In this document: one piece after another, positions 20,067-64,000 of the stretch
Numbering within the stretch: the first letter of the stretch is position 1
Layout: the number at the start of each line of letters is the position of its first letter
Source of the DNA: Lingula anatina
Taxonomy: Eukaryota; Animalia; Brachiopoda
DNA: 64,000 bases
Direction: 5' to 3'
Assembly: GCA_051362555.1 (NCBI GenBank)
Contig: CM120641.1
Location: forward strand, 37,640,401 to 37,704,400
Made by a program: the position numbers and the translations under genes
Notes under the pieces: generated by a model
Told to the model about the DNA's origin: nothing
The model's database searches: none
Seen by the model: only the letters and a program-made list of their open reading frames with translations

Positions 20067-20705
20067 CCGCTAACCCTAGTGATCTACTTTTAATTTGGTT
20101 TACTCATCTGGGCACTAATACAAAAAGAATTAATCTTGGTAAAAAAAAAAATCAGCAAGAGCGAGAGTGAAATATAATTTTGTACTTAGAACCATGACAT
20201 TTGTTTTATCGAGATACCAAACCGAGCCTAGATCGTGTCAGCTTTATATATAATAATAAGACGTGATTGTTTTACACGGCTCTTGTTTCAGCACACACTA
20301 AAGATACAGATAATGATTTTTAGCATGCAATGCTAGTCTGACCCAAGACTGAATACTCTTATGAAAAAATAGTGGTATTCAGCATATTTAGACGAGGTTT
20401 GTTGCTGGGATTATAATAAAATAAATGTGCGATAAAACATAGCTATATATTTAACACTTAACGTACCATAGCAAACGGGTTGTGTTAATGCTACGGTGGA
20501 AGCCACGCGTCAAATCATTACTGGGTCATCACCTCAAAGTAAACAAAGGCCTATTCACACTAAAGAAATTTCTGGACCAAATTATAGTGACGTGGTGTCT
20601 AGAATTTTTTCCACGTTAGTTTCTGGGCACAAATTAAACCGCCGAGGTCATTCAGGTCGGCAACTGTTGCTACTCTTGCTCGCTGAAACTTAACCCTACG
20701 TCGCC

Positions 20706-22482
20706 ATGACTGCAGCCATGCTTACGTTGGCCGTTGCTCTCGCTGTAATAAATATTGTCAGAATACAAGCCGAGGTCTACTCATCCTTCGCTCATCTCGA
20801 GCGTTCACTGCAAGCTGAGCAATCTCTGGCGAAAGACATCAAAGATTATATAAAACAAGAAAAAGTGCGGCTGGAAAAGTTGGAAAGGTAACGTACGCGA
20901 TAGCATTGCCTACGTGGCGGCTATACATTAGTAGGTTTCCGATACACTATATTTATCCGTCTAAGTCTAAGCATGACGTATTTGCCTAAAAAGCAATGTG
21001 GTGTTGCGTAATAGGTTCACATAAATGCAATGGGACGAAATAGTAGGAAGTAGCCGAAATTAAATCAGTTTTTTTTGGCATTATCATGAATGGTTTCAGA
21101 GCTGCCGAAGAATATGAACAACACAGCAAAGCAGCGTTGGCGAACAGTGAAAGTTTCATGGGGAATCCCATCAACGCGTACTTGTTTATGAAACGCTTTA
21201 CGACAGACTGGGCAGACCTCAGTCATCTACTGCGAGAGGACCACAGCTATGGTATGCCCTACACACACTCCCTGGGTTCCCCTTTATTGCTTTCCTGATG
21301 ATATTTCAAGAAAGGCCCCTAGAGCCAGACAAACTGCCACAATCATGACTGGTAGTGTAGATAGAGTATTTTAATTAAAATGTTGTGCATGACCCAATTT
21401 CTGAGGTACATTTTTAATATTTATCAGCTGAATGGATTTTATCATTTATTTGTTAATTTTAGATGGATTCCTACTCTAGATTAAACCTGAGAATAGTCTC
21501 GAATGTGTAACACATTAGGTGCAGCCATTAACGTGAAGTCTATAATACGAATCCACCTTTTCCACGTGTCCTGTAAATGTGATCAGAATACCTAATATTT
21601 AATTACGCAATATTTATTATAATTTTTTTTATTTAATATTTCTTTGCACAGATCTTTTGGCAAATTTCGAAGAGATCAGAAACAAGGGATTTTTACCTCA
21701 GTTGATAGATTTACAAGGGGCAGCGGCAGCTCTGATGAGGTTACAAGACACATACAATCTCAACACATCCGAAATTGCCAGTGGAATACTGCAGGGAGTG
21801 AAGAGATCGCCGGGTCTATCTGGTATGAATATACTTATGATATTTTAACGACATTATTAATTTGGATAGGATCTTTGATAAAGTTTTTCTTTACACTCAT
21901 TTATCAGATATATGTAATCAAATAAGTGGATGCACAGGAAAATCCACAGGAAATATCAATGGTCGTGAGGCTTACGGGACATATTTTGTTGGGTAACATT
22001 CAATTTTATTCTGCAATGCCAAATTTTGAAAGCAGTTTGCGTAATTGCATAGCAATTGCAAAATTAATAACATAATGCTATGATTCATTCCAACTCCCGT
22101 GCTTAACACATTTGCCTCGACAAATACTTGATTATTCATATGCAGCAACAAATACCTACAACACATCTGATAGTCGGTCAAAGTTTATGTCCAAAATGTT
22201 TTGCAGTCAATATACCGGTGAACTTCTCATTTCAGCCTTTGACTGTTTTTACTTTGGGAAATACGCATATAACCAATCTGATTACTACCACACACTTCTG
22301 TGGATGCAGGAGGCGCTCAATAGACTGCCATTTGAGCCTGACTCCCCCATAGACCGGATAACCATATTAGATTACTTAACGTTCGCAACTTTCAAGGTAA
22401 GGGGATTTGTGTGCTTTCAGTCGACTAGAGAAACAGACATCCTATTTGAATGTTTCTAAGTCTGTATGTTTTTTAAAGGGGG

Positions 22483-22515
<33 letters not shown>

Positions 22516-22533
22516 TGTGATTTTATCTCTCAC

Positions 22534-22604
<71 letters not shown>

Positions 22605-23327
22605 GGTCAAAGATAACGTAAACTCTTGCAACCAAATAGTAACTCAAAATCTAACCTTTTCCCCCAGCATCATCCGAGACATACACAGTCCAACGAAGTT
22701 TGCTAATGTCTTACAATATTTCAGCTCATAAAGTGGGAAAAATGAAAGCATATTTCGGAATTTTAAGGTTGGTCTGTTTTGGTTTTTAGCAAGGAAACGT
22801 GAGACACGCGCTTCTTCTTGCAAATGAGATGCTGCAGATAGGTAAGTGCTCAAATAGCAAGTAAGCGCTATATAAACAAAATATTAATGCCACTGAACTA
22901 ATACTTTAATTGAAATACGAATTTTCATTTATGATATTTGTGAGACAATAATTAATGGCCTAAAATACAAACATTTCCAACTAGTGACTACATGGCGTCA
23001 CCAATAGATCAAGTGACTTATTCAATCTAAGTTCACAGTTATTCCCTTTATTTTTAACAGACCCCGAGAACGAAAGAGCATTACAGAATAAAAGATATTT
23101 TCTATCAAATCTTGAGGAATCTGACAAGCCGATGACGATTGAAAATAAAAGGCCACATAGGGGAGTAAGGGATGAAGAATATGAAAATTATGAAAAACTA
23201 TGCCGAGGAGATAGTATTAAACCTTTCAAAGTAGGTTCAGCTATTTGTATAATTATCCTCTTCATTTGAAATGTCGTTGACACCTTACATCTTGAAGACA
23301 TTTAATTGTGTATATTATTATTATTAA

Positions 23328-23361
<34 letters not shown>

Positions 23362-26300
23362 TTAAAGCAACCTCTAAAACCTGATATGTGAGATAACGCA
23401 TCTTTTTTACCGTTTCATGATTAGACACCAAAACGGACCCACAAACTTACTTGCAGTTATGAAACCAACAAGAGCCCTAATCTGCTGTTAAGACCATTCA
23501 AAGTTGAAGTATTGTATCACAGCCCTAAGATAGTCATGTGGCACGATGTGCTGTCCGAAGTCGAAATGAAGAAAGTGAAAGAGCTCGCTACGCCTCGGGT
23601 ACGTAGTAAGAGAGGCTAACATTTTGCTTAAATGTGATATGGTTTGTATTTAAAGTATTAACAGTTTCCTATCCGGGATTTTTCCCCCTTGACAAAAAAT
23701 AATACCACCATATTCTTCCTGACATTTTAGAAAGAAATGTCTGGATCTGGTACTTTTATTTGATGGGTTTTATCATTTCTAAGGCGAATTGGGAAAGATA
23801 AGTAGCTTTGCAGGGTATTAAGATCTATATAATATGACTTTGGAACATCTGGAACCGCGTATAGTAGCCTACACCTATAACAGCGCACATCGCATTGCTC
23901 GCCAAGAGAGACATTATCATGCTCGAAAAAAGAAAAAACTAACAGTTGTCTAGATGAATGCTCGTATTCATTTATTTCAGTTAAACCGCGCGACCGTTCA
24001 CAATCCGGTGACAGGAAAACTTGAATTCGCGGAATACCGAGTTAGCAAAAGGTCAGTGTCTTCGACGTCTTGTGTTTTGGAAATTGTGTGGCGCAAAAGT
24101 TTAAGCGAAATTGTTAGAGCCTCAGGAGATGCTACAGTAGAAATCAAACTCGTTTATATATAATGTAACCAGTGTGCTCAAGCTTACTAGAGTATGGCCC
24201 TACTTTTGTGGGCAGTGAGTTAGATCATCATTATTTTAGTGAAATACTTCAATTCAATGAGAGGACAGTACAAGTACACAACGAGACTTCTTCGATGTGT
24301 TACTAATTGTTAAAAATTGCCGTGAGTATGAAAATTCTTATAAATTTCTCTGTTCTAGCGTTTTCTTGGACAGCGACATCGACCCCGTAGTGGAAGTAAT
24401 CAGTCAAAGAATCGCAGACATCACTGGATTAGATATGTCCACGGCTGAAGGACTACAGGTGTGGCGCCTTGCTAGTTCTCCATTCAACTAAATTTGCCAC
24501 ATTAAAAAAATGTTATATATTTTTTTTACCTTATTTGCTGACATTGGTAAACTAGAAAAATGTTCTACACACACTGGACAATAGAAGTGTCACCCCTTGA
24601 ATCAGAGTAATCAAAGTTATTAACCTGAAGAGGTGAAATATAAGCAATGTCAGAATATCGATACAGTTGAATTGTTCAGTCAGAACCATTTTTTTTGTGA
24701 AATTTGATGTTAATAAATGGATACCAGAAGCATATCATTCCGCAATCATTTATCTCCCTCAAAGTATCGGTTCAGTAGGGGTGACACTTCTATTGTCCAG
24801 TGTGTGTAGAATAATTTTTCACCAATAGAATGTGTTATGTTTTTTTTCTTCTCTAACTACCTAGGTAGCTAATTACGGGATGGGTGGACAATATGAGCCA
24901 CATTTTGATTTTGCCCGGGTAAGTTTTAAAAATACAAGATTAACTTTGAAATAAATCAAGTGTTTTAGTCTATTGTTTTCTCATCAACTTCGCTAATCTG
25001 AGGGGTATTTACAAATACCTAGTTTAATATTAGTGAAAAAAGTACATGCATGTAGCTTGTAAAGACATCATTGTTTTTACTTATGTGACGTATAGGGCTT
25101 CAAAATAGCATTAAAGGGATTTTAATATATAGCCTGTTTACTATCATTATACAAGAGACACTGATTCACCTATTTTACTGTTAAAAGTTATTGGATTATA
25201 CATTTACGTAGTGTTTTAAGACAAGCCACTTTTTTTTCCAGAGGAGAGAAACCCACGCTTTTAGTGATGCTATAGGAAATAGAATAGCCACAGTTCTGTT
25301 TTATGTAAGTAATTGCACTGGAAGTAACCGATGCTGTTACTCTATCAGTCGACATACCCGTGCCTATGTCAGATAAGCTTTTTGTCTTTTTGGTCTCAGT
25401 TGTCGAGAATAATAGTGACGTCTTTCTAACGTTAAATTGTTCAGCCAAACAGTTGTTAGAATCTAGGACCCATTAAAAAGAGGATACTGGGTCCTATTAA
25501 GAATTAAATCAGGTTCGTTGTATGTGTGATATACTGTATAATGTTTACCATTCTGTTTTGTCGTAAGATGACAGACGTGGAAGCAGGGGGCGCCACAGTA
25601 TTTCCCAAACTAGGAGTTAAAGTTTTCCCTAAAAAGGTGCGAGTGTTGCATAAGTTCTGTAATCAAATATTTAGTGGTGTATGGTGAATTAGACTCAAAC
25701 ATATTGTATTTGAACTGTAAAACGCTTACACTTTCGTTGTAGTCATATGCATATATCGGTATAATAATTTACCAAAGTTAAAGTTTTATAGTAATAAAGT
25801 TAAAATGCAATTTATATATTTCTACATGTATGTATAGTAAAAATAACTGACACAATATATTAAAATATTACTTTTATTTTATCAAACCTCAGTCATTGAA
25901 AGGACCAATTTTGAACTACAATTATAAAACTGTGGAAAGTAACATACATGTATTTGTTGATTACATTTTAGGGATCTGCAGCATTCTGGTACAATCTCAG
26001 ACGGAGTGGTATTGGCGACTACCGTACAAGACATGCCGCGTGTCCGGTGCTGTCTGGGGCCAAATGGGGTACGTAAGCTCAGCACGCGCTTTGTAATATC
26101 ACTCACTACCCCCCCCCCCCCCCTCCCCAGGCCCACTAATTGATTTTTTTTTAAATCAGATATTCACAGATATGTATCTAGTCAATTCATTACATTTTTC
26201 TCTACTGTGTGCGTTAGGAAAAAGTGCATATTATTTATCTGCGGTCATGGTAGGCAAAATATCACAGTATCTGTGAACATATTCTTATTAGAATGTAGTC

Positions 26301-26745
26301 TAAGCACTAACTTCTACCATAGGTGATTCACAAGGTAGTGGTAAATGTCATCATCATCATTGCTCTTCGTCCCGCGTGGTGGTAAATGTACACCATTTTT
26401 AAAAGTTGCTTCGGCCGCATTCAGAACAGATGATCCGCGGACTAACTGGACTAATAACTGGTCAGTCAGTTAGTCCGCGGATCATCTGTTCTGAATGCGG
26501 CCTTAGTTCGACGATTTGTTTTTAAAATAGTATTTTTTAAATTCCTTGTTTTTTGACTGTATTAAATCTTGCCTCCTCCGTGTAAAGCCTATCAAACATG
26601 GCTGTCGTGTACCAAGGCATTGTATACATCCTTGCTTTTACTGAGCTGTATTCATCTTTATAAAATCTTTTCAGTTTGCAATAAATGGCTGCATGAAAGA
26701 GGACAGGAATTAAGGCGAACGTGTTCAACCAATCCTAAGGAATAA
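20706..26745 (+). CDS. P4HA: Prolyl 4-hydroxylase alpha subunit (P4HA-A), 14 coding exons, 528 aa: 20706-20887, 21100-21251, 21652-21822, 22236-22396, 22790-22841, 23061-23230, 23425-23598, 23981-24051, 24359-24458, 24865-24918, 25242-25304, 25568-25636, 25972-26068, 26675-26745
   Basis: Signal peptide, GNPINAY, ALMRLQDTY, TPR peptide-binding domain (DYYHT..WM), YRVSKS, VANYGMGGQYEPHFD (HxD), GNRIAT, GGATVFP, TRHAACPVLSGAKW, CNKWLHERGQE. All introns are GT-AG and the spliced length of 1587 nt is in frame. Confidence 0.95.
22485..22600. repeat. (CT)n / (GT)n(GA)n microsatellites in P4HA-A intron 4
   Basis: Directly visible. Confidence 0.9.
23314..23361. repeat. (ATT)n microsatellite
   Basis: Directly visible. 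Confidence 0.9.
24568..24806. mobile_element. Tc1/mariner-type MITE in P4HA-A intron 9
   Basis: 30-bp perfect TIR CACACACTGGACAATAGAAGTGTCACCCCT...AGGGGTGACACTTCTATTGTCCAGTGTGTG, flanked by TA on both sides. Confidence 0.8.
26413..26502. mobile_element. Short palindromic MITE (PIF/Harbinger-like) in P4HA-A intron 13
   Basis: 36-bp perfect inverted arms (26413-26448 / 26467-26502) beginning GGCCGCATTCAG; flanks TTC/TTA resemble a 3-bp TWA target-site duplication. Confidence 0.7.
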
Positions 26746-48023: not shown

Positions 48024-51000
48024 TCATTCATATGGGCTCAGGCCGCATGTTCTCACCAGTTCATTGCCTCGTTCATGAATCCATTTATTTGAAACTGAAA
48101 GAAAATATTTTACACTAATTATTTAAATCACAAAAAGGTTCTGAAATGTACATTTAACAAAATGCATCAATATACAAAAAATAACATGAAAAGAGCCCAG
48201 AACTCACACCATGTTGGCATGTGTATAGAATGGAATATCAACTTTCCAAGGGCATCATAATGACAAGTACATGGTTTTCTTGACATGTTATTCAAAACAG
48301 TAAGTGATGAACAATATGCTATAATACAACAGTTTTAACATATTTAAAAATATAGAAGAAATCTCACCCCATTTCTGTCCCACTAAAACTGGGCAAGCTG
48401 CATGTCTTGTCCTGAAGTCACCTTCTCCACTCCTGTATAGGTTGTGCCAAAACACAGCAGAACCCTGAACAAAGAACCCCACAAAGTGTTTTAACAAGTA
48501 TATAGCCACCTTAAGTTGAAAACATGTGTCTTAATGGATATGCCTCAGAATAATATTATGGGGACAAGAAAAGTAATTTGAATTAGATATTGGTAGTGAA
48601 CTTTAGGGGCTTCAAAAAAGATGCATTTTCAGTGCAACAATTCCATTTTAAATATTTATGCCCAATTCACAAACCAGCCGTCCGCACCTAATGACAGTAA
48701 AATGTTTATGGATACATCATGAATAATAAACCTACATGGGAAATGAAACTTGAAAGCTATAAAACTATTAGGCTACCTTTTTAGGAAAAACTTTGACCCC
48801 AATAGGAATAAACACTGTGGCACCTCCAGCAGTGACATCACTCATCTGAAATCCAATCAGTTTTAAGTAAGACAATTTCAAAAATTCAGATGTAAAAACT
48901 CCACATTATTGAATGAATACTATACATCTGATTTACTTATTATGAAGGACCTAAACCAAAAGTACACACTAAATGGAGCACACTTAACCAATTTGCTTAT
49001 TATTTTATGCTGCTTTTTTACAAAAAGAAAAAAAAATAATAATGAAAACAACATTGATAAAACAATTTGTCCTGAAATCTAACATCTACCTCCTCAGCTC
49101 TGGCTTAGTGATCAAATCATTAATGGCTCCATCTAAATAGAATGCTGTTTGCTTTCATCAAACGAGCTGCATACAGATGCATAATACAATGTCTACACAT
49201 CTGGTCTTTCATGTAGATTTTGCATAGATTGACAGCACTCCCCAATTATCTTTCAATTACAGTTAAATAAACTTCAAAGTAGATCCCCCACCTCATTTAA
49301 AAACACTGATACTTTATTTTTTTACCCTCTGTTTCAAAACAAACATTCTATCATAAACATTTCTCAGATTTTGTACCTTTACTAATCATTTGAAATGCAA
49401 TACTACATTTAACTTTTACCAAAATATGTTTTTTCTTCTTACATAAAGGTATTCCTCTAATTTAAAAAAATAAAAAGAATTTTTGAAAAAAATTACTTTG
49501 AATAAATAAAAAGAATTTTAGAAAACATTAATTTCATTTAAATCATCAAAAAATCAAATAAAAATAAGAAAACAACTCACGTAGTTCAACCATGTGGCAA
49601 TTCTATTGCCATGAATATAATCAAAGGCAGTCTCCTCCTGTTTCTAAATCAAAACATACACAATAATCCATTAAACCTCTCCAGACTGATCCAACACATG
49701 CACACAGCACACTGCCACCATGGGAGTGATGGTTCTTTTATCTGAGCACCAGTATAATATATACAATCATTTCAATAAATGATGAAAAAGTGAGCAATCT
49801 AACATTTCCATCATTCAAGAACAGATAGAAACCAGTACATACCCCATATACTAACTGCACAACTCTAAAGTATCTTACAATGCACTGCTGCTCAGATAAA
49901 AGATGCAGTAAGTAAAGGATGCAAACAACAAACAGACGGCTACTCTAAGCTAGGCTGGCTTGGTTGGGAATACAAGGCTACAGCCTGCAGCGCATTTTGT
50001 GATCCTTTCCAAAACACTATTCCCAACCAAGCCACTTACATAATTAAGCAGAGTAGCTATCCTGTTTCCTACTCTGGTATCAAAAGCACTAGATTCATCT
50101 TTCTGAAAACAAATGTGTTTTAAATTACTAAAAGCCATCAAGACATCTAGCCATTCCTTTTAGCTATTAAGAAGCCAATGGTTTTATTGCAACACTGATA
50201 TATTTCAATTTGATGTAGTAAAAGGTAAAACGTGCAACTAATTTTAAGTGGTACAGACATAATTAGACTTAAGTGTTTGTAAAAATTCATTTTTGCTTTT
50301 AAATTCTTTAAAACTTTCAACTAGAATTTCTCTCATTATAACACCAATATAACCAACATACTGTTACCTATGACATAATCCAGAATTTTGAATTATTTTT
50401 AAATAGATTATAAAAAACATGCTTACTCTTGCAAAGTCAAAGTGAGGCTCATAATGCCCACCTATCCCATAATTAGCCACCTGAAAGAAAAAGAACAAGG
50501 CAGCAAAGCTGTCAAATGTACAGACAAAGAACAGAAAATAAAGACGCAAATAAGTGAAAAATTAAATTTTCACAAAAAACTGTTAAATTGCCAGAAAAAT
50601 TTACCAAACAGACTGCGTTGCCTATTGAAGCTGTATGTTAGACCCATGTTTCTTTCCTGTAAGTTTGAGAACAGTAAGTGACATGATTTCCCTTAAATGG
50701 TCATCATAGGAGCAGTGCCCAAAATAGGGGTTTCTTCAAATTTTGATGCAACATTACATAATGTTTAACAGCATAATGACAATCAAATGTTATTAATAAA
50801 ATATAAGTAACATGGACATTCAGAAAATGTGACAAGCAAAAGTCTTCAAGATCATGGAACTTTAAAGTCACACCTTGAAAATGCCAATATGTGAAAAATT
50901 AAATTTTCACAAAAAACTGTTTAACTGCCAAAATAAATAAATAAATAAATAAAAATACCAAACAGACTGCATTGCCTACTGAAGCTGTATTTTAGTCCCA

Positions 51001-53624
51001 TGTTTCTCTCCTGTAAGTTTGAGAACAGTAAGTGACATGATTTTCCTTAAATGGTCTTCATGGAAGCAGTGCCCAAAATAGGGGTTTCTTCAAATTTTGA
51101 TGCAATATTACATAATGTTTAACAGCTTAATGACCATCAATTTTTAATTATAAAATATTTGTTTCACAGATATTCAGAAAATGTGACTAGCAAAGGTCTT
51201 CAGGCCCATGGAACTTCAAAGTCACGCCTTGAAAATGCCAAAATGTAAACAAGACAGCACTGTTCTGAAATGGGTTTATTTCCATTTTTAACACTTTTTT
51301 AACATAAAACAAAATAAACATTTTACTGCCATTTTATATGACCAACTAAGAAAATTGATGAGATGGGAAAAGTATCAATAGAACAGTGTTAAGTGTCCAA
51401 TTTCCTCCATTCTGAGATTCTGAACATAGTGGATGATTGAATCTGACAAACTGCAATGATATGAGTTTATTTCCATTTTTGACACTTTATTACATAATAC
51501 ATGATAACAAGTTTACCATGTTTTTTACATAATCAACTAACAATGTTGTAAAGATGCAGGAAATATCAAACAAACACTTTTAGGCATCTTATTAGTTAAA
51601 TAATGAGACTGTTAACATGCCTAATAATTGAATCTGAGGAAATGTGAAAAACAGTATAACTTCTAAAATAATGGCCTGATTATGCTGATTTTCGAACTCA
51701 ACCTGCGTTTTAGTAAGATTGACCACTCCTGTGAGTATGATTACAATTGGCCAATCCGTTTTTCTTATATTGTGTTATCAGTGTTGTATTTATATTGAAA
51801 ATAGTGAAAAAACAGCATAAAATCCCTAAAAACGGCCCAATCATGCTGATTTTCGAACTTGACCTGCGTATTATGAATATTCATCAGTTCTGTAAGTTTC
51901 AAGTCAAAAGGTAAAATGGTTTTCCACTTATCGTGTTATCGGTGCTGCATATATGCTGAAAAAAGTGAAAAAACAGCATAAATTCCCTAAAAGTGACCCG
52001 ATCATGCTGATTTTCGAACTTGACCTGCGTATTATGAATATTCATCAGTTCTGTAAGTTTCAAGTCAAAAGGTAAAATGGTTTTCCACTTATCATGTTAT
52101 CGGTAAAAGTGCACGGCGCCGACGGCGCCGACGGCGACGACAGACGCAGATGATGGCTATATGTACAGACACATCTGTGTCTGTACATAAAAATTGCATC
52201 TGATCAAAACACATCGTATTCAAAGGCAACTGGGAATTAACACTTTTGACTAAAAGACAAACAAATATCCGTTAAGATGAAAAGTTCATCAGAGAGCACC
52301 AGAGTGAACATGTCAAAATGGACATAATCTATTCTAATTTGTACCTAATGATAGTTGATCTAAGACCCCATTTCCAGAGATTAGATCGATCTACTTTAGA
52401 TCGACCTAACTCCCTGGGGGTTCACGCTAAATAGCTGTCAGCCGAGCGGACAAGAAAGTTAATTACCCCCTTGCAGCTTGTAGTAGGCTGGACGGACATT
52501 TAAGCCGGATGATCTGACAGTAATCTAGTGAGACTTCCCGCGGGGATAGATCGATCTAAAAGCTCTGGGAATACAGCCTAAAACTGCTAGGTAAAAGAAA
52601 AAGAAAAAAAAACATAGTGTAATGATTTGTTACTAATTACCTGAAGATCTTCAGCCATAGTCATGTCCAATTGGGTGACATCTTTTATTCTTTGGTTGAC
52701 TCTTTTAATGACAGCATCTTCATCTTCCTTCAGCCATGCACTAAAAAGTTCATTTTCATATAAATATTGGACACACCATTGGAGGATATTTAGCAGGAAT
52801 CTTTACTGGTTTGTCTTCTGTTGCATAAAGCAAATGTTACCTAGTTACTATGCAATTATAACAAATAAAGTAAAAAGAAATACATATTTTCAATAATTAA
52901 GAAATCAATATTTTTCATTTTAATTTGCATTCATTTCTTAATTTATGAATTGCTAAAAGCACCAATTTGAATACATATACAAACTAAACATGTATCAATA
53001 TCAGTGCCAAAGTGCCTTTGATATACATTTAATTCCCACCCCCAATCAAAAAGTATGTTAAAAAGATCATGTACAGAATTTCAGCACACACACACAAAAC
53101 AATTTCCCCATTATATTTAGGTCTTTGGTTGCCCTCAGCACTCCCAACACCATGGTGCTAACATCACACATTGAAAAAAAAACCAAATACAACATAACCT
53201 CTCATATTATTCTACTCTTTGCTCTATTTTCTTTTCTATCTGCCATCCAAAATATTATCGGCTTTATTTTCATTTAACTTTTTTTTTTTGCTTTTAATTA
53301 TATTTATTTCACTCTGGCAGCTTGATGTCCTCTTATCCATGGGGTCCTATGCATGTGTTTAGTCTGCTTAGAAATAAATAACAGCCTGAGCCCCAAACAA
53401 ACAAGTACTCTATCAGTATATGTTTATACATAAAACTTTTATCTTCACTAAGCTTGAACGAGGTGAACAATTCCATGTGTTCATTGTACTTTCCATTCCA
53501 TTTAAAAGTGAATTTTGACCAGGAATACAAGTCCTTGTACTTTCAAAATGTGCAAAATGTCTTTAGGATATAAACCAAGGCTATCAACAGGCAAAGGAGG
53601 AAGATTTAAGAAAACCCCCCCCCC

Positions 53625-53690
<66 letters not shown>

Positions 53691-56600
53691 GCCTCCTTAA
53701 CTAAAAAAAACAATATAATGATTCATTAGTTATAACTTCTACTTTTAAAATGTATCAATTTTAGAGTGATATATTTACTATCAATCAATGTTTGTGATAG
53801 CTTATTACAAAGTTATCAAACTGATAATCGTAAAGAAATCTTTAATCGTCTTTCTTGTATACTTATATATTGCACACTTCACTCCAAGCAAGTAGTGAAA
53901 ATATTTCTTCAATGTTTGACCAGTGTATACTTCAGTGCACACAGTAAATAGACAATTATCAAATCCTTGCTCGTGCTCTCCCCAATCAAACCTGCTGCTT
54001 ACCCTTTACTTGTACGGTAATTTTGAGTGGATGGCTTTGATGCATCAGAGGTATCAAACACTGTGGAACGTGCCAGCTACAACACATGACAAATCATGCA
54101 CATCATGGGAACTACACAGACCAATAACAGTGCATGTGCTCAAGACATTCACACAAGAGCTGAGAACGTAAGCAGTGCCAGAGTAAACCCACATTTGTGG
54201 CACTGATAATACTCAAAGTATAATTCTCAAAAGTACTATTGTGAACTCACAATAGCATGAGTGTGAATCCACAATAGTACCAATGTGAACTCACAATAGT
54301 ACGAGTGCAAACTGAACTGTGAAGAGAAACAGAATCTTAATGAACACTTAAATGCAACCAAGCAAACGTGAAAAATGCCATTAGTATAGAGTGTGGCAGA
54401 GTAAGGCTTCGTTCACATGCAATGTCTATTTTCTATTTTCTATTTTCTATTTTCGGTATGTCTTATGATCACGGTCTGTGCACTGAATATCCCGCCGCGT
54501 AATTACTGGCAGCGCGAGCCAGTTACTTAAAGTAACTTATAGTAACTGGCTCGCGCTGCCAGTAATTACGCCGCGGGATATTCAGTGCACAGACCGTGAT
54601 CATAAGACATACCGAAAATAGAAAATAGAAAATAGAAAATAGACATTGCATGTGAACGAAGCCTAACACTGCAAGAATTTCAACTAAAACTTTGTTACAG
54701 ACTTCTAAGAAAAAGAAATTGCTGAAAAAAGCAAGGGCAACTCAATAAGTTAGACACTTCAAAAGATACAGAAAGTTAAAAAAAAACAAATTAAAACAGT
54801 CTCTGTTATATATTAAATCAGAAGGGATTATAAGACAAGTGTTAGCTATCCCATTGTGCATAAAATATTGCCAAGTTATTTCATGTCTGACTTAAACAAA
54901 AAATGCCACTTCCAGGCAGCTCTCATTTCATGATGGTTTTACCATTTCTGAAGCACAGATATGCACCTCCTACATAACAGTTAAAATCTAGGAAAATGAC
55001 CAGAAAGTTTAACAAAGTTTAAAAGATAAGAATCAAATCTGTACTCAGTAAGACCAACTGCACAGTTAGACTATTAATTTTACCTTTTACTAGTTCTATA
55101 CTGTACCCTTCCATGTTTATGAAACACACCCGAAACGGCAAGCTAAAACAGAATCACATGGCACATGACATTCAAAATGTCTATGAGGGCAAACTGTTTA
55201 CTATACAGACAATATGTCTGCCATCCAGGAACTTCTCTAATAGGATATATAGTTGATAACATTATTGGGGTAAGGGAAGGGAAAAAGCTGGGTATTTATA
55301 ATTCTGATATGTGTAGAGGGAATATAACAAATAGAAAACATATCTAGAGAGTAGAAACTCACAAAAAATAACAACAAAAATCTTCCTGCTGATCTTCAAA
55401 AATCACTTTTACATATTTGTCCCTAACCTAAATGTGGGTCAAGAACAACAAACCTAAAAACCCTGAGTAGTTTAAAATCCAACCATTCAAATTAATACTT
55501 TTATATATTCCATACATTGCTTATAAAATTTTGCTTACATAAGAATGAGTATTTTACATTTGTGAGTAGAATATAGAAAATTACATTTTCAGTTCACAGA
55601 GGGTTACATTCACAGATCTATTAAAGCTACTGGGCTTGAGTGTATTGAGGCATTAGGGAAGCAGTGGTATTATACCTTTCATAATCCGAATTTAATATGA
55701 AAAGGTATTACAAAAGATCAAGGGTTGCTCAGAGATAAGCATATCTGTGCTACATACCATCTTACGTACATTTTCCTGAAAGCCTGCCACCAACAAAACA
55801 TAAGTCTTCAACCCATTATATCCAAGATTAAACAAAATAAATGGTTGGTTAAGAAAAATTGTAAGAATTATAAAAAACAATGAAACAAAAATTCGTTTTA
55901 AAAAAGAAGTAGAAAAAAGTAAAAGAAAGGAAAAAAATGTGCATTTCATCTTCTGATTGACTGCAAATGCTATGGAAGTGTCTCCACTCAATTGATAGAA
56001 CAATGAAGTTCAAAAGAACAGCACTTGCTGCAATATCAACTTAAGCTGCCATTCAAATTCAGAAAAAAAATGTTACAGACAAAAACAAAAATGTAGCTTT
56101 TGCCTTTAAAAAAACACCTAAACAACAACCAATTTTAACTCGAGTTAGACAGACACATTGGGGAACATAACGTAAACCTTTACCACCTGGCACCAGAAAT
56201 TCAACATTAACTGACGCTAAACAACCCAATCATGAACCAAGCTTGGACAACATCACCAATTACCAAAACCTTTGGGGGAAAAGCAGTCATAAGTTTTAGG
56301 AGTGAACTTTGTCATTCTCAGGGAAACAGTATGGTTATTAGTAAACATGCTAACAGATGAGTCACATGTCTACACAAAACATAAAAATTGATGAAATATA
56401 CAAGCAACACTTTACCTTTTACTTATGCGGTAAAATGCAGGCTCGTAACGACCTGTTTGGAGATTCATTGCAGTTGCCCGAGCAAGCTGTAAAAACACAA
56501 AGGAAGGAAAGAAAAATTGAAACAGAAAATTAAAAGCATTACCCAAGATCAGAAGCTATACTCTGATCAACCCAGATATGCAGAACGAAATATATAACTG

Positions 56601-59600
56601 TAAAACCTGAAAAGGCTGACCCAGATGAGGCACAAAGCTGAAACAGAAATATAAGATGGTATGACCCATGTGGGATTAAGCTGGTCACGAGCAAGGATGG
56701 GCGTGGAGTATCAATCATTTTCTTTCATTTTTTCCCCAAAAAAAATTCTATTTTTCTTTGTTACCTTTTACTTATTCTGTACTTGGCAGGTTCAAGTTGA
56801 AGAGTTTGGGGATTTTGAACAGTGGCTCGAATTAACTGCAAAACATATTTTGATTAAAATGTCAACTATAAAAAATAAACCCGCACAAATAATGATAATA
56901 TGAGGCATGCACAGTAGATATTTCAGGCATTAAAATACGATTCAAGAGTATCATGGTTTCCACCTAAATTGGGACTTTTATTCCATGCACATGCCATCCC
57001 ATGCTTTTTAAACAATCCAAATCACAAAACTATCTCCATCTTAAACTGAAGAACACAACTTCCTCTATCTTATATTTCATGCACACAGCCTTCCTGGTCT
57101 GAAACTATGAAGCTCTCCTTTACCTTTTACTTATTCTATAGAATGCAGGTTCCAGTTGTCCTGTATATACATTTTGTACTGTAGCACGTTTAAGCTGAAA
57201 TGCACACATTCTATGTGAAACTACAAAGAATTTGAGATAAAATAAAAAATAGAGGGTTAAGCAATAACAACAGTAAAACAAAACATATCATTATAGCCAA
57301 TAAAGAGAGTGCAAGAGAACATGCAATTCACAAAGAATATTTACACTATAAGTAACAAATATCTCTATTTCAATTCATGCATTTCATATCTTTCTGCAAT
57401 ATAAAATTTCATAATAAATGTTATCTCAGCCCCAATGACATGTTATCCAAATTCCAATTAAATCAAACAAAAGAAAACATTTCTACAGAGCAGCACTCAT
57501 TGTGTAAATATTTCAAATAAACCCAACTAGCAATGGATGAATTGAATAGAGACAATTCTAAAGTGGTAATAGATTAACAGTTGAATAAAAGCTTGCTGAT
57601 AGAATTTTAAGAAAACAAAAGTGTGACAAAAAATTGTGCATGTTGATTACATTAAAGCATACAATTCAATTTTCATCACGCAAATGAATTTAATGAAATC
57701 AAGTAAGAAACAAACAATTGTTGCTTTATCAAAACACATATATTTTGATGATCATTTTTACAAACATGCATTACTCCGAATAAAAATGACTTACATTTCT
57801 GATGCAACAATTCGGCTCAAACAGTCAATTTTATCCAAATATTTAACTATACTTTTGATAGTATTTATAATAAGCTACATGCATAACACCCATTAAAACA
57901 TGCAACAAGACAAAGAGTAAAATGTCAAGTCATTGATCCACTAGCTGGTTTCAGTATGTGCCACAGCATTGCTTAATATACACCAGCAAAATTCAGTTCG
58001 AGGTCTTTCTACATGCCTTTATATAAATATATATATTACATGGATACCTTTATATAAATATATAACCATGCACATGCATACATGTGGATCATAGCAACTC
58101 GGCCATTACAGGTCTTATTCACTGACCTAAATTTTGCTTTCAGATTTTGTTTGTTGAATATTTTTTCAGGGTGGAAACGATGTATAAATGAATAAATAAA
58201 TCATTCATTTTTATTACATGAATGCTTACCTTAGGTGCAGCAAGCCTTTTTATTGTCTCTATTTCAAAATCTGAGAGCATGTTATGATAAAACAAAATCC
58301 TTGGATCCAAGAATGCCTCCTCTTCCTTCAGAGGCCGTAATAACAGATTAGGACGATTGTTGTGTGTGTAACGGCATTTCAGCTTGTGTTTGTTGGGATC
58401 AGGCTGAAAAAAATTATCAGATTCCAAAAATATTTCAACAGAAAAAAATTCATTAAAAAACCAACTGAAAAAAATCACCAATAACCATATTGAAATAACT
58501 AGAGCTAGCCTGCAAATCTCATTTTTGCATTTCATCTCTAATAACAACATTCGAGACAATATGACAGCAGTTCATGAATCACAATGACCAAATTTTCCTA
58601 CATGTTAACTTGATATTTGTCATTTTTATGAAAAAACATTAAACACTTCAATGCAAGAAAAAAATTATGTGAAATCACATTTACAGTAAAGGAAACAGCT
58701 ACCAATAATCATTTGCATAAACACCTACAATGATATCCTCTCCTCTACAAAGAGCTTCATACTGCTTGAATTCTTGACCCTTTCTGTAATCATCAAGAAG
58801 TCGCTGGTTTTGAATTTCTGGCAAATCTTCCTCTTCTCCGCGCTTTTTTTCCTGATCAGCCGTCTCCAGCAGTTTTTCATAATAGCGTAAATTATTGACG
58901 GCTCTTGGATGATTGGGATCTGACATAAACAGAGAGTTTAGTTAAATGCAGCAATTTGACCCCAAAACAAAACATCATCTGGCAATATTAAAAGGGTATT
59001 TTTGACTCAAATCAATTCATTTGCCACACTGTGGACATAAATATCTTTACACAAATAATGGACACTACCACATGATAACTAATCCACTAATCATGTAGTT
59101 CATGACAAAAGAATGTATCAGATTGATTAACTCAGTCATCAATGTAATTAAGGTAAAGTAAACATAATTTCCCCTAATTGATATTTCCTTGTATGATTAC
59201 TTTTTTGTATATAATTGGATGGAATTCTTGTTTACGTCGACATGTTTACTTCATTCCAAGTGGAACAATTTAGAAAACAAAAAAATGTTTCAAAAAAATT
59301 AAGATGTGTTACATATACTACTAACCTAAAATAAAAGATGTCAATATGTGAAAATTAGAAAACATGCTAATTGAAATTAATAACTGCAAAAGACATAAAA
59401 AGCTTGAAGCTGATAACCTTCAAAATGCCCATAAAAAGCATAAAAGATATGAAGTCATAATTTAATACTAAGGAAAAAATAAACTTTTTTGATTCGATCC
59501 AAAAACTAAACCAAAAGAAAAGTTGTTACACTAAACCCAAACAATACATCAGAAATTGTTTTATAAATTGACATGAAAGTTTAAAAAAAAAAAAAAAAAA

Positions 59601-62600
59601 AAAAAAACAGGAGTAACTTTTGGATACTAAGCTGGAGTTAACTTCTGCTTGTTCTAGATGGTGCACAATTGTAACTCAGGTCAGTGTGTTCTTAGTCATT
59701 TTGTTTGAAAAGACATGCTTTGGTTATACAACTTGATGATAAATAAGTCAATTTATTTAAAAAAAAAGAGGAACAAAATTGAAGACTGTAGATATTTGTG
59801 TGCAGATTGAAAATTATAATGTGTTCAGTTTTAAAAGTCAAATAGAATTCTGAGCACTGAAATAAAGAACAGAAAACAGAGAAAGCAATTCACTTTTAAA
59901 AGTCAAGCACAACTGGATTTCAGAAATGAACACAGTGAAAGTGAACAGATGCCCCTGACCATGAGAGAGCTGCATACCACATCACACAAAAGTTTTGTCA
60001 TCACAAACTTTTCCTTGCTTACCAAGTTCTAACAGTTGTTTGGTGAGCTTGCGTGCATGCTCAACATTGCCTTGCTGTAAAATATATAAATATACATTCA
60101 TTTAAACATTGTAACTCTTATAAAATGTTGATCTTACCTATCTTAAGAAGATCTTGAGTAAGTAAATAAGCATGGCGGATATTCCCTTGCTGTAAAAAAG
60201 GTGAACATAGAATTCAAAGAAGAAGGAGAGAAGGAAAGATGAAAGGAAGAAAAATTATAATAAAACTAATACTTTTTTTACAAAACTGAACTGTTAAAGA
60301 ATATTTTCAAGTATCATTAATAAACACTAACAATGACTTTGATGAACAGGAAAAATGTACTGAAGAACAGTTAACATTTATCAGGAAGTACTGTAAACAT
60401 TAAATATGGCAATAAAGCATTTATCAAGAATCTAAAACGACCATAGACCAAAGCTGGGATTCTAATTCTAACATTCCTTTCCCAAGACCAATTTTCTCAA
60501 TAACTGATTAACACACACACAAACACACACACTTTTTAGTCAATGTACACTACTTATTTTTGTGTCTAGCGTGAGATAAATAAATCTTAATGAAATCTTT
60601 TCAAGTAACATTGGAACCATGGGATACTGATCTTTTACATTAAATTAATAAAACTGAAACCAAGTATTGAAATATTTCAAATTCAACACAACGCAAGAAA
60701 AAGAAAGTCCATTCAACCCAAGTTTTGCTGCAAGAGCAAGAACCCTATCTTTCTTTTTTCTCTCTTTCAGGGATCTGCTGTAAATATTTCTATCTACCTG
60801 CTCATGCCATGGCAGATGTTTGGGGATTTAAATCAGGTTTTTAAAAGCATGACACCAGGGACACAACCAATGCAACCAAGCACATGATATGTTACACATC
60901 TCTGCATAAAGATTCATGAATCCCAAACCAATCATGTCCAAACCAATCATGTCAGTATGAGATATACAACACACCCATAAATAACTTTCAAATATATATA
61001 ACTGGCAGCTATATCTTATAGCAGCATTAGACAAATAATGTTTATGTAAGTAGCAACTAGGATCTTAAAAGCATAACATAAGTTTGCTAATTATTCATAA
61101 TACTTTGACAGCTAAATCTAAATACTTGCACCCCAAACATAGTACCATTGTGAGAGCATATGCCAGATAGTCCATAATCTCCCCCATGCCGACAGTTTTA
61201 ACTTCCTCTTTATGCCAGATAGCCAGGGCCTGCTGCATCCAGTTCACCGTGTGGTACCAGTTCCCCTCAGTGTAGGCATACTTGCCCAGTACAAAACATT
61301 CCTCCGCTAAAAACACACACACACACCATAGAGAAATAATGGGTTGGATATCTCCGACCTGTTTTATTTTACAACAATTAGTTGGTGCTTGCATGCTATC
61401 TTCCTTAAACTCTATGACAATTTCATAACTTTGTTCAAGCAGTATTGTTTTTGGAATATATGTACCAGGAGCATGTTGCACCTTCGCTGAAGTCAGGTTA
61501 TCTTGGTTTGATTAATGCATGGTACTGTTAGTCGGTGCTCGCATGCTAAATTCTCATCCCTGCATTCTTATAATGCTATTAATGGCAAAGGGCAATTTTT
61601 CTTCAGGACAAAGGTCTCAATGTAAGAGTTCATTTGTGTACAGAGCAACATTGTGTCAGACACCAACAAAACAATCTGGAATTTTCTATATCCAAGCCAA
61701 TGTATAAGCAGGCAGCAGACCTGTGCATCCATATCACTGGTTGCTCCACCCACTTTGTTTTTTTTATTCAAATTCTTGATTAAATACCAATAATTCCTGG
61801 TACATGGGACACGGTCTGTATGGCCTTACTAGGGTTACATGCACATTGCTATAAGACACTTTTTATCATATAACTGTAGTTTTCTCTTCAAGGGTGTTTC
61901 ATGCAAAGGCATTCCACATCTCACATTCTTGAACACACAAACACACACAGTCATATACATGTGATGACATGCAACATGGTTTTGCTGTTAAGTGCTTACC
62001 CTATATAGTGAATAGGCAAGGTAATCTATTGTCAAAGCTCGGTCAGCTGTTTTGTTAACTTCTGTATCAAGTGTGTTTAATGCCTCCTCCATCCATAAAA
62101 TACAGTGATAATAATCTCCAGCATTGTAGGCAGTTCTGCCCAATTCAAAGCAATCCTCAGCTGAAACAAAACACACAAACAAGATAGGCACCAAGCAGTT
62201 AGTACTAAACAACTAATAAATACATCAACCAGGCCTGTAGACAAGCAATTTTAAGGGGGAGGGGAAGGTGGTTCTTTATCCGAAAAGGTAAACCTTTTTG
62301 TGTGTTCACAGAAGCTAAATCAAAATTTGATTCCGAGTGGACCCTTTTCCAACCAAAAAGGCAATCTGTTCCAACCCCCCCCCCCCCCCTTTGCCTAAGG
62401 GCCTGTCAACTAAGCTACAATATCTGTGTGCATACTAAATGGCAAGCTCCAGGGATCAAGCATTGGTTTGTTAATATTCAACCCACAATCGTATTCTGAA
62501 ATCAAAGCTACTTTTTTAATCTGAAATCAATGTCTAATGAAGTAAAGGACTTGGTAGGCCATAAAGCAATACTGAAGTACTAGTAAATATGTAACTTGAA

Positions 62601-63442
62601 CATTTACAGTATGTTTAGATAACTGGAATTATTAATTAAACATTTACAAATTTTATAAACAAAATGATAATTAATACCACTGAATCTGCCCTGGAAACGA
62701 AGTGAATTTTTACCCTACAAATCAAATCACCAAGTTCACAAATTATTTGATCAAATATTATCTAGAATTTGAAAACAGCTTCCTAGCAGAAAGAACTTAT
62801 GGGTAAGACTTACCTGTCATTTCTGGAGAGTTCTTGACTCCCTGCAGTTCCCCCTTGGCAATCTGAGCAGTTGGGAGGTTGTAAGTGTCCTGTAACCTCA
62901 GCAGGGCAGTTGCAGCCCCCTCGAAGTCTTCTTGCACTGGGAACTCAGACCCTCTATTGTGAAGCCGAGCAATTAAATCTGAAAATCATATATAAAATGC
63001 AAATAGTAAAAGATTTCACATAATGGAGTGTACACCTCTATTGTCAGGACTTCTGGTCACCCTTGGTTTGACATTCACACTTTGATTCTGAGTTTTTAGC
63101 CTTAAACACTTTTGCTCTAAAACTAATGAATAAGTATAGGAGGTCGATTTCTTTTTCTTCAGAGTGTGAACATATGTTTAAATGTGTGCACCTAGATTTT
63201 TCGACATTAAGTGATCACAGGCCATGCCACATGTAAGAAGACTGAATTATCATAACGGTGAGCAACAAAAGGTTACATAATCAGTCTTACCTGTGGAATT
63301 AGCTTTAACAAGTCCATCTACAATTCTTTCCCAGTCTATTGTGAACCTTTTCACTAACAAGTATGCATTCACTGGGTTGCCCAAATGCTTTTCTATATCA
63401 CTCAAAGCTTCTTGACTATGCCGCTCATAGTCTTCTGCAACT
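48024..63442 (-). CDS. P4HA: Prolyl 4-hydroxylase alpha subunit (P4HA-C), 5'-partial (first coding exon outside the window). Constitutive exons: 63442-63291, 62978-62814, 58919-58729, 58403-58230, 52740-52641, 50480-50427, 48845-48777, 48464-48368, 48094-48024; plus alternative clusters 4a/b, 5a/b, 8a-e, 11a/b
   Basis: GNPVNAY, ALLRLQDTY, DPNHPRA..N..YYE, YEALCRG, SAWL, VANYGIGGHYEPHFD, GGATVF, TRHAACPVLVGQKW, SNKWIHERG; intron positions and phases match P4HA-A and P4HA-B. Confidence 0.95.
49581..49643 (-). CDS. P4HA-C alternative exon 11b (KQEETAFDYIHGNRIATWLNY), 63 nt
   Basis: tttag acceptor, gtgagt donor; homologous to 11a. Confidence 0.9.
50040..50102 (-). CDS. P4HA-C alternative exon 11a (KDESSAFDTRVGNRIATLLNY), 63 nt
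   Basis: ttcag acceptor, gtaagt donor; GNRIAT motif. Confidence 0.9.
50554..51245. repeat. Intronic tandem duplication of a ~340-bp unit (50554-50890, 50891-51245)
   Basis: Both units start GTGAAAAATTAAATTTTCACAAAAAACTG and end CCTTGAAAATGCCA; highly similar by eye. Confidence 0.9.
51248..52193 (-). mobile_element. Non-autonomous Helentron-like (HINE-type) element with internal ~130-bp tandem repeats
   Basis: On the minus strand: T-run, 14-bp hairpin TATGTACAGACACA/TGTGTCTGTACATA (52160-52189), a GC-rich CGTCGGCGC microrepeat, about three repeats containing TGCTGATTTTCGAACT (51640-52105), and a CTTGTT end. The left boundary is uncertain. Confidence 0.6.
52364..52578. mobile_element. PIF/Harbinger-like MITE with imperfect TIRs
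   Basis: TAA on both flanks; imperfect TIRs sharing CCAGAG..TTAGATCGATCTA. Confidence 0.6.
53641..53686. repeat. (TA)n microsatellite
   Basis: Directly visible. Confidence 0.9.
54003..54076 (-). CDS. P4HA-C alternative exon 8e (LARSTVFDTSDASKPSTQNYRTSKG), 74 nt
   Basis: ttgtag acceptor, gtaagc donor, phase 0 to 2 like the other exon-8 copies, open frame, YRTSK motif. Confidence 0.8.
54405..54663. mobile_element. Palindromic PIF/Harbinger-type MITE, 259 bp, TAA TSD
   Basis: 123-bp inverted arms (54405-54527 / 54541-54663) with one mismatch; GGC...GCC termini; TAA on both flanks. Confidence 0.88.
55084..55142 (-). CDS. P4HA-C alternative exon 8d (LAVSGVFHKHGRVQYRTSKS), 59 nt
   Basis: ttttag acceptor, gtaaaa donor, phase 0 to 2, exactly 12 nt shorter than 8a-c, YRTSK motif. 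Confidence 0.75.
56416..56486 (-). CDS. P4HA-C alternative exon 8c (LARATAMNLQTGRYEPAFYRISKS), 71 nt
   Basis: ttacag acceptor, gtaaag donor, RAT...YRISK motif. Confidence 0.9.
56765..56835 (-). CDS. P4HA-C alternative exon 8b (LIRATVQNPQTLQLEPAKYRISKS), 71 nt
   Basis: ttgcag acceptor, gtaaca donor. Confidence 0.9.
57124..57194 (-). CDS. P4HA-C alternative exon 8a (LKRATVQNVYTGQLEPAFYRISKS), 71 nt
   Basis: tttcag acceptor, gtaaag donor. Confidence 0.9.
60023..60074 (-). CDS. P4HA-C alternative exon 5b (QGNVEHARKLTKQLLEL), 52 nt
   Basis: ttacag acceptor, gtaagc donor; same length as exon 5 of the paralogues. Confidence 0.88.
60138..60189 (-). CDS. P4HA-C alternative exon 5a (QGNIRHAYLLTQDLLKI), 52 nt
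   Basis: ttacag acceptor, gtaaga donor. Confidence 0.88.
61146..61306 (-). CDS. P4HA-C alternative exon 4b (AEECFVLGKYAYTEGNWYHTVNWMQQAL...DYLAYALTM), 161 nt
   Basis: ttttag acceptor, gtacta donor, open frame, TPR peptide-substrate-binding helices. Confidence 0.9.
62000..62160 (-). CDS. P4HA-C alternative exon 4a (AEDCFELGRTAYNAGDYYHCILWMEEAL...DYLAYSLYR), 161 nt
   Basis: tttcag acceptor, gtaagc donor, canonical P4HA TPR sequence. Confidence 0.92.
62230..62405. mobile_element. MITE (family A, copy 3, diverged)
   Basis: CAGGCCTGTAG...CTAAGGGCCTG termini, internal similarity to 19905-20066, TCAAC on both flanks. Confidence 0.7.
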
Positions 63443-64000
63443 CTGTAATGATATATATAGGTATTATCACTATTCCTTGGTAGTCATAAGCCAAAAAACA
63501 AAACAAAACAAAAAAGATGTGCAATACCCATGCAAATGCAATAAAAATACAAAAATGAGATTGCTTGATACCTGAGTTCAACATAAACATCTTAAAACCT
63601 ACATATCTAAATAAATAATAAAAATAGTACTGTTTTGTGTGAGAAGCATGACTGTTTAGATGACTACCATACTGATAGTGATATCATTTTCTCAGCACAT
63701 TAAAAACAGCACATTAAAAACAAAGTTTTCATCAACAATTGTTTGTGAATTGTGTCAGTGTTACTTAGATAAACCCTGATAACAAGACTACTAAATCATT
63801 TTAATTCAACTCAAAAGAATAGTCATAATTCAAGCCCCTATACCTTGAAGGTAGAACAGATTTTTTTCTTCCTAAAACACGGAAAAGGCAGACATGATGT
63901 CTCTATATAACCAAATAAATGACATTGGCTAAAAATTCAAGGTCCTTGTGACAAGTGACAAATTATCATATCCAGGCCCTTTATCATGTTCAGTATCATC

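Follow-up and report, generated by a model that had tools for sequence, protein, structure and literature searches.

Why should a single gene for a collagen prolyl 4-hydroxylase (P4H) alpha subunit carry several copies of four of its exons? The gene lies in a 64,000-nucleotide stretch of the genome of the brachiopod Lingula anatina (contig CM120641.1, positions 37,640,401 to 37,704,400; hereafter the window), where exons 2 to 14 occupy 63442-48024 on the minus strand and exon 1 falls outside. The alternative copies probably give one iron/2-oxoglutarate core several grips on proline-rich substrates. The exon swapping itself is real, expressed and in part ancient.

Exon 6 is a 100% match to L. 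anatina prolyl 4-hydroxylase alpha models, and the P4Ha_N, TPR_P4H (the peptide-substrate-binding, or PSB, domain) and 2OG-Fe(II) oxygenase domains were all over the Pfam cut-off in the four isoforms scanned. The closest PDB match is human P4HA2 (7zsc, E 1e-91). The iron ligands (His-x-Asp...His) are intact, align identically with those of 7zsc and Cr-P4H, and are encoded by constitutive exons 10 and 13. From its sequence the product is predicted to have the features of its class, an alpha2beta2 tetramer with PDI and hydroxylation of X-Pro-Gly.

Profiles made from homologous exon segments, used in a six-frame scan of the window, revealed two copies each of exons 4, 5 and 11, five of exon 8 and one of each of the remaining nine exons; true hits scored 21 to 95 bits and the next hit ≤ 9.6 bits. 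By the same scan every exon of the two P4HA paralogues in the window is single-copy. All 11 copies have AG before and GT after them and keep the same phase, and all 40 combinations with one copy per cluster are open to the stop in exon 14. An initial annotation, made from the letters of this DNA, had given the copy numbers and lengths exactly, and its splice ends, open frames and single remaining exons were also confirmed. The copies are 48 to 68% identical as DNA (5/24 to 18/23 as protein) and therefore do not reflect a collapsed or doubled assembly. All 11 are present in RefSeq models of L. anatina. Eleven isoform models use 4a/b, 5a/b, 8a/c/d/e and 11a/b, the combination 4b+5b exists as a RefSeq model, and 8b appears only in a twelfth, XP_023932280 (P0002). 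In this last model exon 5 is missing and 4a runs through intron sequence into 4b, a joint absent from the reads listed; the model is probably an annotation error. The exons, in order of transcription, are:

63291..63442, minus strand: exon 2, constitutive, dimerisation domain; 2-3 joint in 4/4 runs
62814..62978, minus strand: exon 3, constitutive; from joints and profile scan
62000..62160, minus strand: exon 4a, 161 nt; PSB helices H7-H9, with Tyr where human P4HA1 has Tyr199
61146..61306, minus strand: exon 4b, 161 nt; alternative H7-H9, with Thr at the Tyr199 position
60138..60189, minus strand: exon 5a, 52 nt; helix H10 of TPR2
60075..60137, minus strand: intron between 5a and 5b, 63 nt; the shortest other intron of the gene is about 275 nt
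60023..60074, minus strand: exon 5b, 52 nt; alternative helix H10
58729..58919, minus strand: exon 6, constitutive; H11 with the equivalents of Arg223, Asn227 and Tyr230, plus linker; boundary confirmed by reads
58230..58403, minus strand: exon 7, constitutive; start of the catalytic domain
57124..57194, minus strand: exon 8a, 71 nt; hairpin loop, canonical type
56765..56835, minus strand: exon 8b, 71 nt; hairpin loop, canonical type
56416..56486, minus strand: exon 8c, 71 nt; hairpin loop
55084..55142, minus strand: exon 8d, 59 nt; shortened hairpin loop of 19 residues
54003..54076, minus strand: exon 8e, 74 nt; divergent hairpin loop of a type also found in annelids
52641..52740, minus strand: exon 9, constitutive; from joints and profile scan
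50427..50480, minus strand: exon 10, constitutive; His-x-Asp iron ligands; 9-10 joint in 4/4 runs
50040..50102, minus strand: exon 11a, 63 nt; betaII-betaIII loop
49581..49643, minus strand: exon 11b, 63 nt; alternative betaII-betaIII loop, in 3/11 RefSeq isoform models
48777..48845, minus strand: exon 12, constitutive; from joints and profile scan
48368..48464, minus strand: exon 13, constitutive; distal His
48024..48094, minus strand: exon 14, coding part to the stop; from open-frame check and profile scan

RNA reads were mapped to 54700-63600 from runs X1, X4, X7 and X9 (counts are given in this order; joints were listed if spanned by ≥ 3 reads in a run) and to 48700-62300 from runs X8, X5, X6 and X2 (15 of 186 joint rows visible, reads of an intron-9 repeat dominating). 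Exon 3 was joined to 4a by 13/3/22/23 reads (61 in total, 4/4 runs) and to 4b by 0/7/10/8 (25, 3/4 runs). Exon 6 was reached from 5a by 2/8/7/11 reads (28, 4/4 runs) and from 5b by 0/0/16/15 (31, 2/4 runs), with a further 18 in X8. The commonest exon-8 form in the first four runs was 8c, joined to exon 7 by 5/10/9/17 reads (41, 4/4 runs) and to exon 9, as loose ends, by 49 (15, 11 and 23 in X4, X7 and X9). Exon 8a was entered from exon 7 by four reads (X7 only) and 8e, as loose ends, by 22 (6 in X7 and 16 in X9), with read depth inside 8e of 13/0/8/1 in X8/X5/X6/X2. The 8b-9 joint had six reads in X1, the run that also holds four 8a-8b reads. Exon 11a was joined to exon 12 by 37/6/10/4 reads in X8/X5/X6/X2 (57, 4/4 runs), while the 9-10 joint had 26/25/13/3. 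In X5 there are too few 11a-12 reads (p 0.0007 versus 9-10 and 0.04 versus 6-7), indicating that this run makes use of another option: 11b, both copies or a skip. Thus the claim that the copies serve as alternatives holds by junction reads for eight of the 11 (4a, 4b, 5a, 5b, 8a, 8c, 8e and 11a), which are spliced through in-frame joints; for 8b, 8d and 11b, found as alternatives in automated models only, it is unproven.

Usage differed between runs, although tissue and population are confounded in these differences. The share of 4b among exon-3 joints was 0/13, 7/10, 10/32 and 8/31 (chi-square p 0.003), and 5a:5b use was 10:0 in studies P1 and P2 together and 18:31 in study P3 (p 0.0002).

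At clusters 4 and 5 exactly one copy enters each transcript, as neither doubles (4a-4b, 5a-5b) nor skips were listed in X1, X4, X7 and X9 at the three-read floor, against 86 exon-3 and 59 exon-6 joints. As the initial annotation had stated, two copies together break the frame at clusters 4, 5 and 8; at cluster 11 they keep it, as do four exon-8 copies combined. Models with both exon-11 copies in frame exist for oyster, Lineus, ticks and shark. An intron of 63 nt is likely to be under the size limit for splicing, and that between 5a and 5b would sterically block 5a+5b. Nonsense-mediated decay removes frameshifted transcripts; doubles at clusters 4 and 8 would be cleared by frameshift and decay, and exclusion at cluster 11 would rely on regulation alone.

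The choices of exons 4 and 5 are linked, 4b going with 5a and 4a mostly with 5b. Reads numbered 0/2/23/12 for the 4a-5b joint (37), 0/1/5/6 for 4a-5a (12) and 0/2/7/4 for 4b-5a (13), and 4b-5b was not among the rows listed in these four runs. Even assuming two unlisted 4b-5b reads per run, Fisher's test gave p 0.006 (0.002 for X7 alone, 0.19 for X9 alone), values that are optimistic because the reads are mates and not molecules. The reads directly support about nine combinations (3 x 3 x 1), or 18 if 11b is used, with a ceiling of 40. Free 2 x 2 x 5 x 2 combination, as first envisaged, was therefore not borne out.

A system of the Dscam1 type, in which competing docking-site/selector RNA pairings would settle each cluster randomly and without regard to the others, yielding all 40 isoforms, is very improbable here. 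It would fit the four clusters with their 40 open combinations and the RefSeq 4b+5b model, and two candidate stems might serve it. One is a 13-bp match between approximately 56687-56699 (intron after 8b) and 53967-53980 (intron after 8e), as stable in 2/200 shuffles, which would loop out 8c-8e; the other pairs approximately 61900-61940 with 60870-60910 around 4b (2/500 shuffles) and would loop out 4b. However, the site after 8e, itself chosen post hoc, does not outscore shuffles when paired with the introns that follow 8a, 8c and 8d, and unrelated real intron pairs score as high as or higher than the candidate stems (57, 51 and 49 of 153 pairs). Intron pairing scans, made in one genome without conservation data, found no shared docking site of the Dscam1 type. 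Together with the linkage of exons 4 and 5, this leaves the Dscam-style mechanism originally proposed without support.

What do the alternative exons encode? Alignment to human P4HA2 puts the hairpin loop (Arg363-Val376) in exon 8 and the betaII-betaIII loop (Arg435-Gly448) in exon 11, the residue ranges being those defined in PMC9676403. X-position specificity is assigned to these two loops by docking and assays, according to bioRxiv 10.1101/2023.06.28.546674. Ten PSB pocket residues are named in PMC12433258, which describes a peptide groove formed mainly by H7, H9 and H11. Counted along alignments, five of the ten (Tyr158, Asp192, Tyr193, Tyr196 and Tyr199) fall in exon 4, five (Arg223, Asn227, Tyr230, Phe231 and Tyr233) in constitutive exon 6 and none in exon 5. 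Position 199 is Tyr in 4a and human P4HA1 and Thr in 4b, and the equivalents of Tyr158, Asp192 and Tyr193 are retained in both copies. Modelled by AlphaFold, the 8d isoform (mean pLDDT 88) has exon 4 as three helices (169-222) and exon 5 as one (226-239); its exon-8 and exon-11 loops are of low confidence (about 60 to 70).

Both exon-11 copies encode 21 residues, and neither is of the 22-residue type that other animals usually have. Isoforms that share all but exon 8 scored 322.8 (8a), 320.7 (8c), 311.4 (8e) and 301.7 (8d) bits against human P4HA2, 101.2, 104.0, 111.2 and 99.4 bits (same order) against algal P4H, and 87.5, 88.8, 100.2 and 95.3 bits against Bacillus P4H. Thus 8e leans towards non-animal (algal and bacterial) loops, a resemblance only. 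Exon 8d has lost four residues, and none of 80 foreign exon-8 segments gives it a score above 29. Both 8b and 8d keep the Tyr-Arg-x-Ser-Lys end, 8d despite about 50% DNA divergence.

From known structures, the hairpin and betaII-betaIII loops close over the peptide at the active site, and exon 4 supplies the greater part of two of the PSB domain's proline pockets. Exchange of 4a for 4b would alter the P5 pocket (Tyr or Thr at 199) and hence peptide affinity, and the forms of exons 8 and 11 would change the X-Pro-Gly triplets accepted, 8e making the largest change.

The age of these switches was examined in the best 120 of 2236 homologues, with 20 clusters opened, a sampling by protein models and not genomes. 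Pairs from Babylonia, Uloborus and Nucella are different genes and were left out of isoform counts. Alternative forms of exon 4 occur in at least 12 mollusc genera (bivalves, gastropods and a cephalopod) and in the nemertean Lineus, and at least five further molluscs have both copies in tandem within one model. In 11/14 genera, including Lingula, only one exon-4 copy has an aromatic residue at 199, and this copy lies upstream in all seven cases with visible order (Lingula and six molluscs). In a tree of exon 4 (54 columns) the two copies of a species never came out as sisters, and a group (92/87) united eight mollusc copies of the second type. As copy labels were set by eye, a test on labels is partly circular and genomic order was relied on instead. 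A single origin of the pair is plausible from these sequences. The members examined from tick, mosquito, spider, bird and shark showed no exon-4 alternatives, and the four annelids, with one P4HA model each, do not allow a judgement.

Among the members examined, exon 11 has alternatives in molluscs (with three in Octopus) and in Lineus, ticks and shark, and exon 8 has them in two clams, birds and shark. Models from the annelids Owenia and Lamellibrachia have a canonical exon-8 copy followed downstream by one like 8e (62 and 50 to 8e versus 24 to 40 to 8a-c); a region search for relatives of 8e returned Lingula only. A partial second exon 5 apparently occurs in the Owenia model as well. Three clusters (4, 8 and 11) vary in the Mercenaria and Ruditapes models, and none examined varies at four. 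Bird P4HA1 models (P0125, P0127 and P0242-P0254) have the His-x-Asp exon, exon 10 of the Lingula gene, in duplicate, which makes a fifth position duplicated within the family. It can be suggested, as a tentative idea rather short of an even chance, that the proline-pocket switch of exon 4 has been kept in lophotrochozoans since before brachiopods, molluscs and nemerteans split, that Lingula couples it to a five-way active-site loop switch and so makes enzymes for different classes of substrate from one gene, and that 8e acts on proline-rich proteins poorly handled by the canonical collagen form.

Several observations weigh against the view that the copies provide different grips on substrate. 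Exon 5 encodes helix H10, a supporting helix away from the groove, to which H7, H9 and H11 contribute most; it is not a contact element and is a poor fit to substrate contact. The initial annotation had placed all four clusters on substrate-contacting elements, which stands for exons 4, 8 and 11 and fails for exon 5, without a named pocket residue. Read counts are small and of mates rather than molecules, and the runs' tissues are unstated. Neither 7-8b nor 7-8d was among the joints listed in X1, X4, X7 and X9, and 11b had no joint among the 15 of 186 rows listed for X8, X5, X6 and X2, its depth being ambiguous because the bins around it include intronic reads. Joints 8a-8b (4/0/0/1 reads, against 67 exon-8 entry reads) breach the strict exclusion claimed for every cluster, which holds at clusters 4 and 5 and lacks enforcement by frame at cluster 11. 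Reads of study P3 (X7-X9), which supplied most reads, differ from the window at many fixed sites and are mostly 95 to 99% alike; these animals are a distinct population or cryptic species. (The P3 differences include an altered end of exon 5b.) Among the read differences listed, 6/10 in alternative and 17/23 in constitutive exons are synonymous, too few to speak for constraint. Among relatives, three clam genera have an aromatic residue at 199 in both exon-4 copies, the tree does not firmly place Lingula 4a/4b and Lineus with the mollusc classes, and matched pairing of exon-4 copies wins in only 7/9 species (p 0.18).

Three further explanations must be set beside substrate grip. The alternatives may tune assembly, stability, affinity for oxygen or co-substrate, or partner binding instead of peptide choice, in keeping with the position of exon 5 off the groove, with the Tyr158, Asp192 and Tyr193 equivalents common to 4a and 4b, and with the hypoxia-responsive choice of human 9a/9b described in PMC11868403. 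This is unlikely, since three of the four clusters lie on known peptide-holding elements while the exons for dimerisation (2-3) and for the core exist in one copy each, and the most consistent difference between exon-4 copies is a pocket residue. A doubtful but more credible possibility, compatible with substrate tuning, is that only core copies matter (4a/4b, 8c or 8a, 8e and perhaps 11a/11b), with 8b, 8d and the exon-5 pair near-neutral or decaying and kept harmless by frameshift decay. The missing 7-8b and 7-8d joints, the appearance of 8b with 8a-8b doubles and the lost residues and low scores of 8d point this way; 8d has no joint of any kind among the rows listed in all eight runs, and reads over it at 55137 for the most part coincide with those in the intron at 55052. 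Yet 8b and 8d retain AG/GT, phase, open frame and the Tyr-Arg-x-Ser-Lys end, 8d is used in 1/11 RefSeq isoform models, and the exon-5 copies are each well used (28 reads for 5a, 31 for 5b). That the copies are dead exons or an assembly artefact can be given hardly any credence: the RefSeq gene is on two scaffolds, so that some duplication exists in that assembly, but the diverged copies are joined in order by RNA reads and equivalent pairs exist in many other genomes. For eight of the 11 copies junction reads rule it out. Substrate grip is the preferred, and a likely, explanation.

Elsewhere in the window, the P4HA paralogues lie at 20694-26742 (plus strand) and 45115-38016 (minus strand), with single exons throughout. 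Exon 4 of the former is nearer 4a (149 versus 110); in the latter exon 4 is nearer 4b (151 versus 132) and exon 11 nearer 11b (69 versus 56). From these similarities the paralogues are possibly gene copies each fixing one splice form. Between them are exons of an ion-transport gene (30184-29519, minus strand) and a HORMA-domain gene (35427-35053, minus strand, below the Pfam cut-off). Intron 9 contains one or more repeat elements (50490-52600), with internal duplications of 354 and 161 nt and a small inverted-arm element (52365-52570); thousands of RNA reads originating in other copies map to the repeat. Between 8d and 8e lies a 153-nt inverted repeat (54381-54687, 93%) resembling a miniature transposon.

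The determinants of triplet specificity in collagen P4Hs and the PSB domain's function are open questions, as put in bioRxiv 10.1101/2023.06.28.546674 and PMC12433258. Human isoenzymes differ throughout, which blurs the answer; the Lingula gene offers natural variants that change one loop or pocket on an identical scaffold, making both questions directly testable. The exon-4 switch concerns oysters, mussels, abalone and octopus as well. In Lingula the phosphate shell is built on collagens of an unusual kind (PMC4595640).

Swaps of both loops are already known. PMC9676403 describes human P4HA1 exons 9a/9b (formerly 9/10), at the same position as exon 8 and encoding the hairpin loop, and human P4HA2 exons 12a/12b, at the position of exon 11 and encoding the betaII-betaIII loop. 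The P4HA1 swap has been dated to Bilateria (PMC8373072 and the PMC9741552 supplement), and its 9a/9b isoforms differ in collagen deposition in cells (PMC11868403). In humans the two swaps are described in separate genes, whereas Lingula has both in one, with five loop copies compared with two in P4HA1, for which no PSB-domain swap is described. Bird P4HA1 isoforms vary at the segment aligned to exon 8 and shark P4HA2-like isoforms at both exons 8 and 11; no vertebrate segment examined matches the 8d or 8e type. RefSeq models of L. anatina (XP_023930560-70 and XP_023932280), molluscs and nemerteans contain such isoforms as automated predictions without interpretation. Neither alternative P4HA exons in lophotrochozoans nor invertebrate PSB-domain swaps are described among the literature matches listed (titles and starts of abstracts, with subscription journals mostly outside), and the main text of the Lingula genome paper has no match for 'hydroxylase' or 'splicing', nor the Alvinella paper for 'prolyl'. 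Absent from the literature searched are the exon-4 pair, the five-way loop set and four clusters in one gene. The initial impression that no P4HA was known with so many clusters holds for that literature, although the same two loops are exchanged in human P4HA1 and P4HA2 and the isoforms exist as RefSeq models.

Several clusters of homologous alternative exons are found in one gene in arthropod Dscam1. The muscle myosin heavy chain gene of metazoans resembles the Lingula gene in the same respect (PMC3912159). The Lingula gene differs from both in having no more than 40 forms, linked exons 4 and 5, no common docking site found, and a product that is an enzyme of the endoplasmic reticulum instead of a receptor or motor. 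Its alternative exons work like the known swaps of P4HA1 and P4HA2, extended to the PSB domain and to four clusters, and not, on present evidence, like those of Dscam1.

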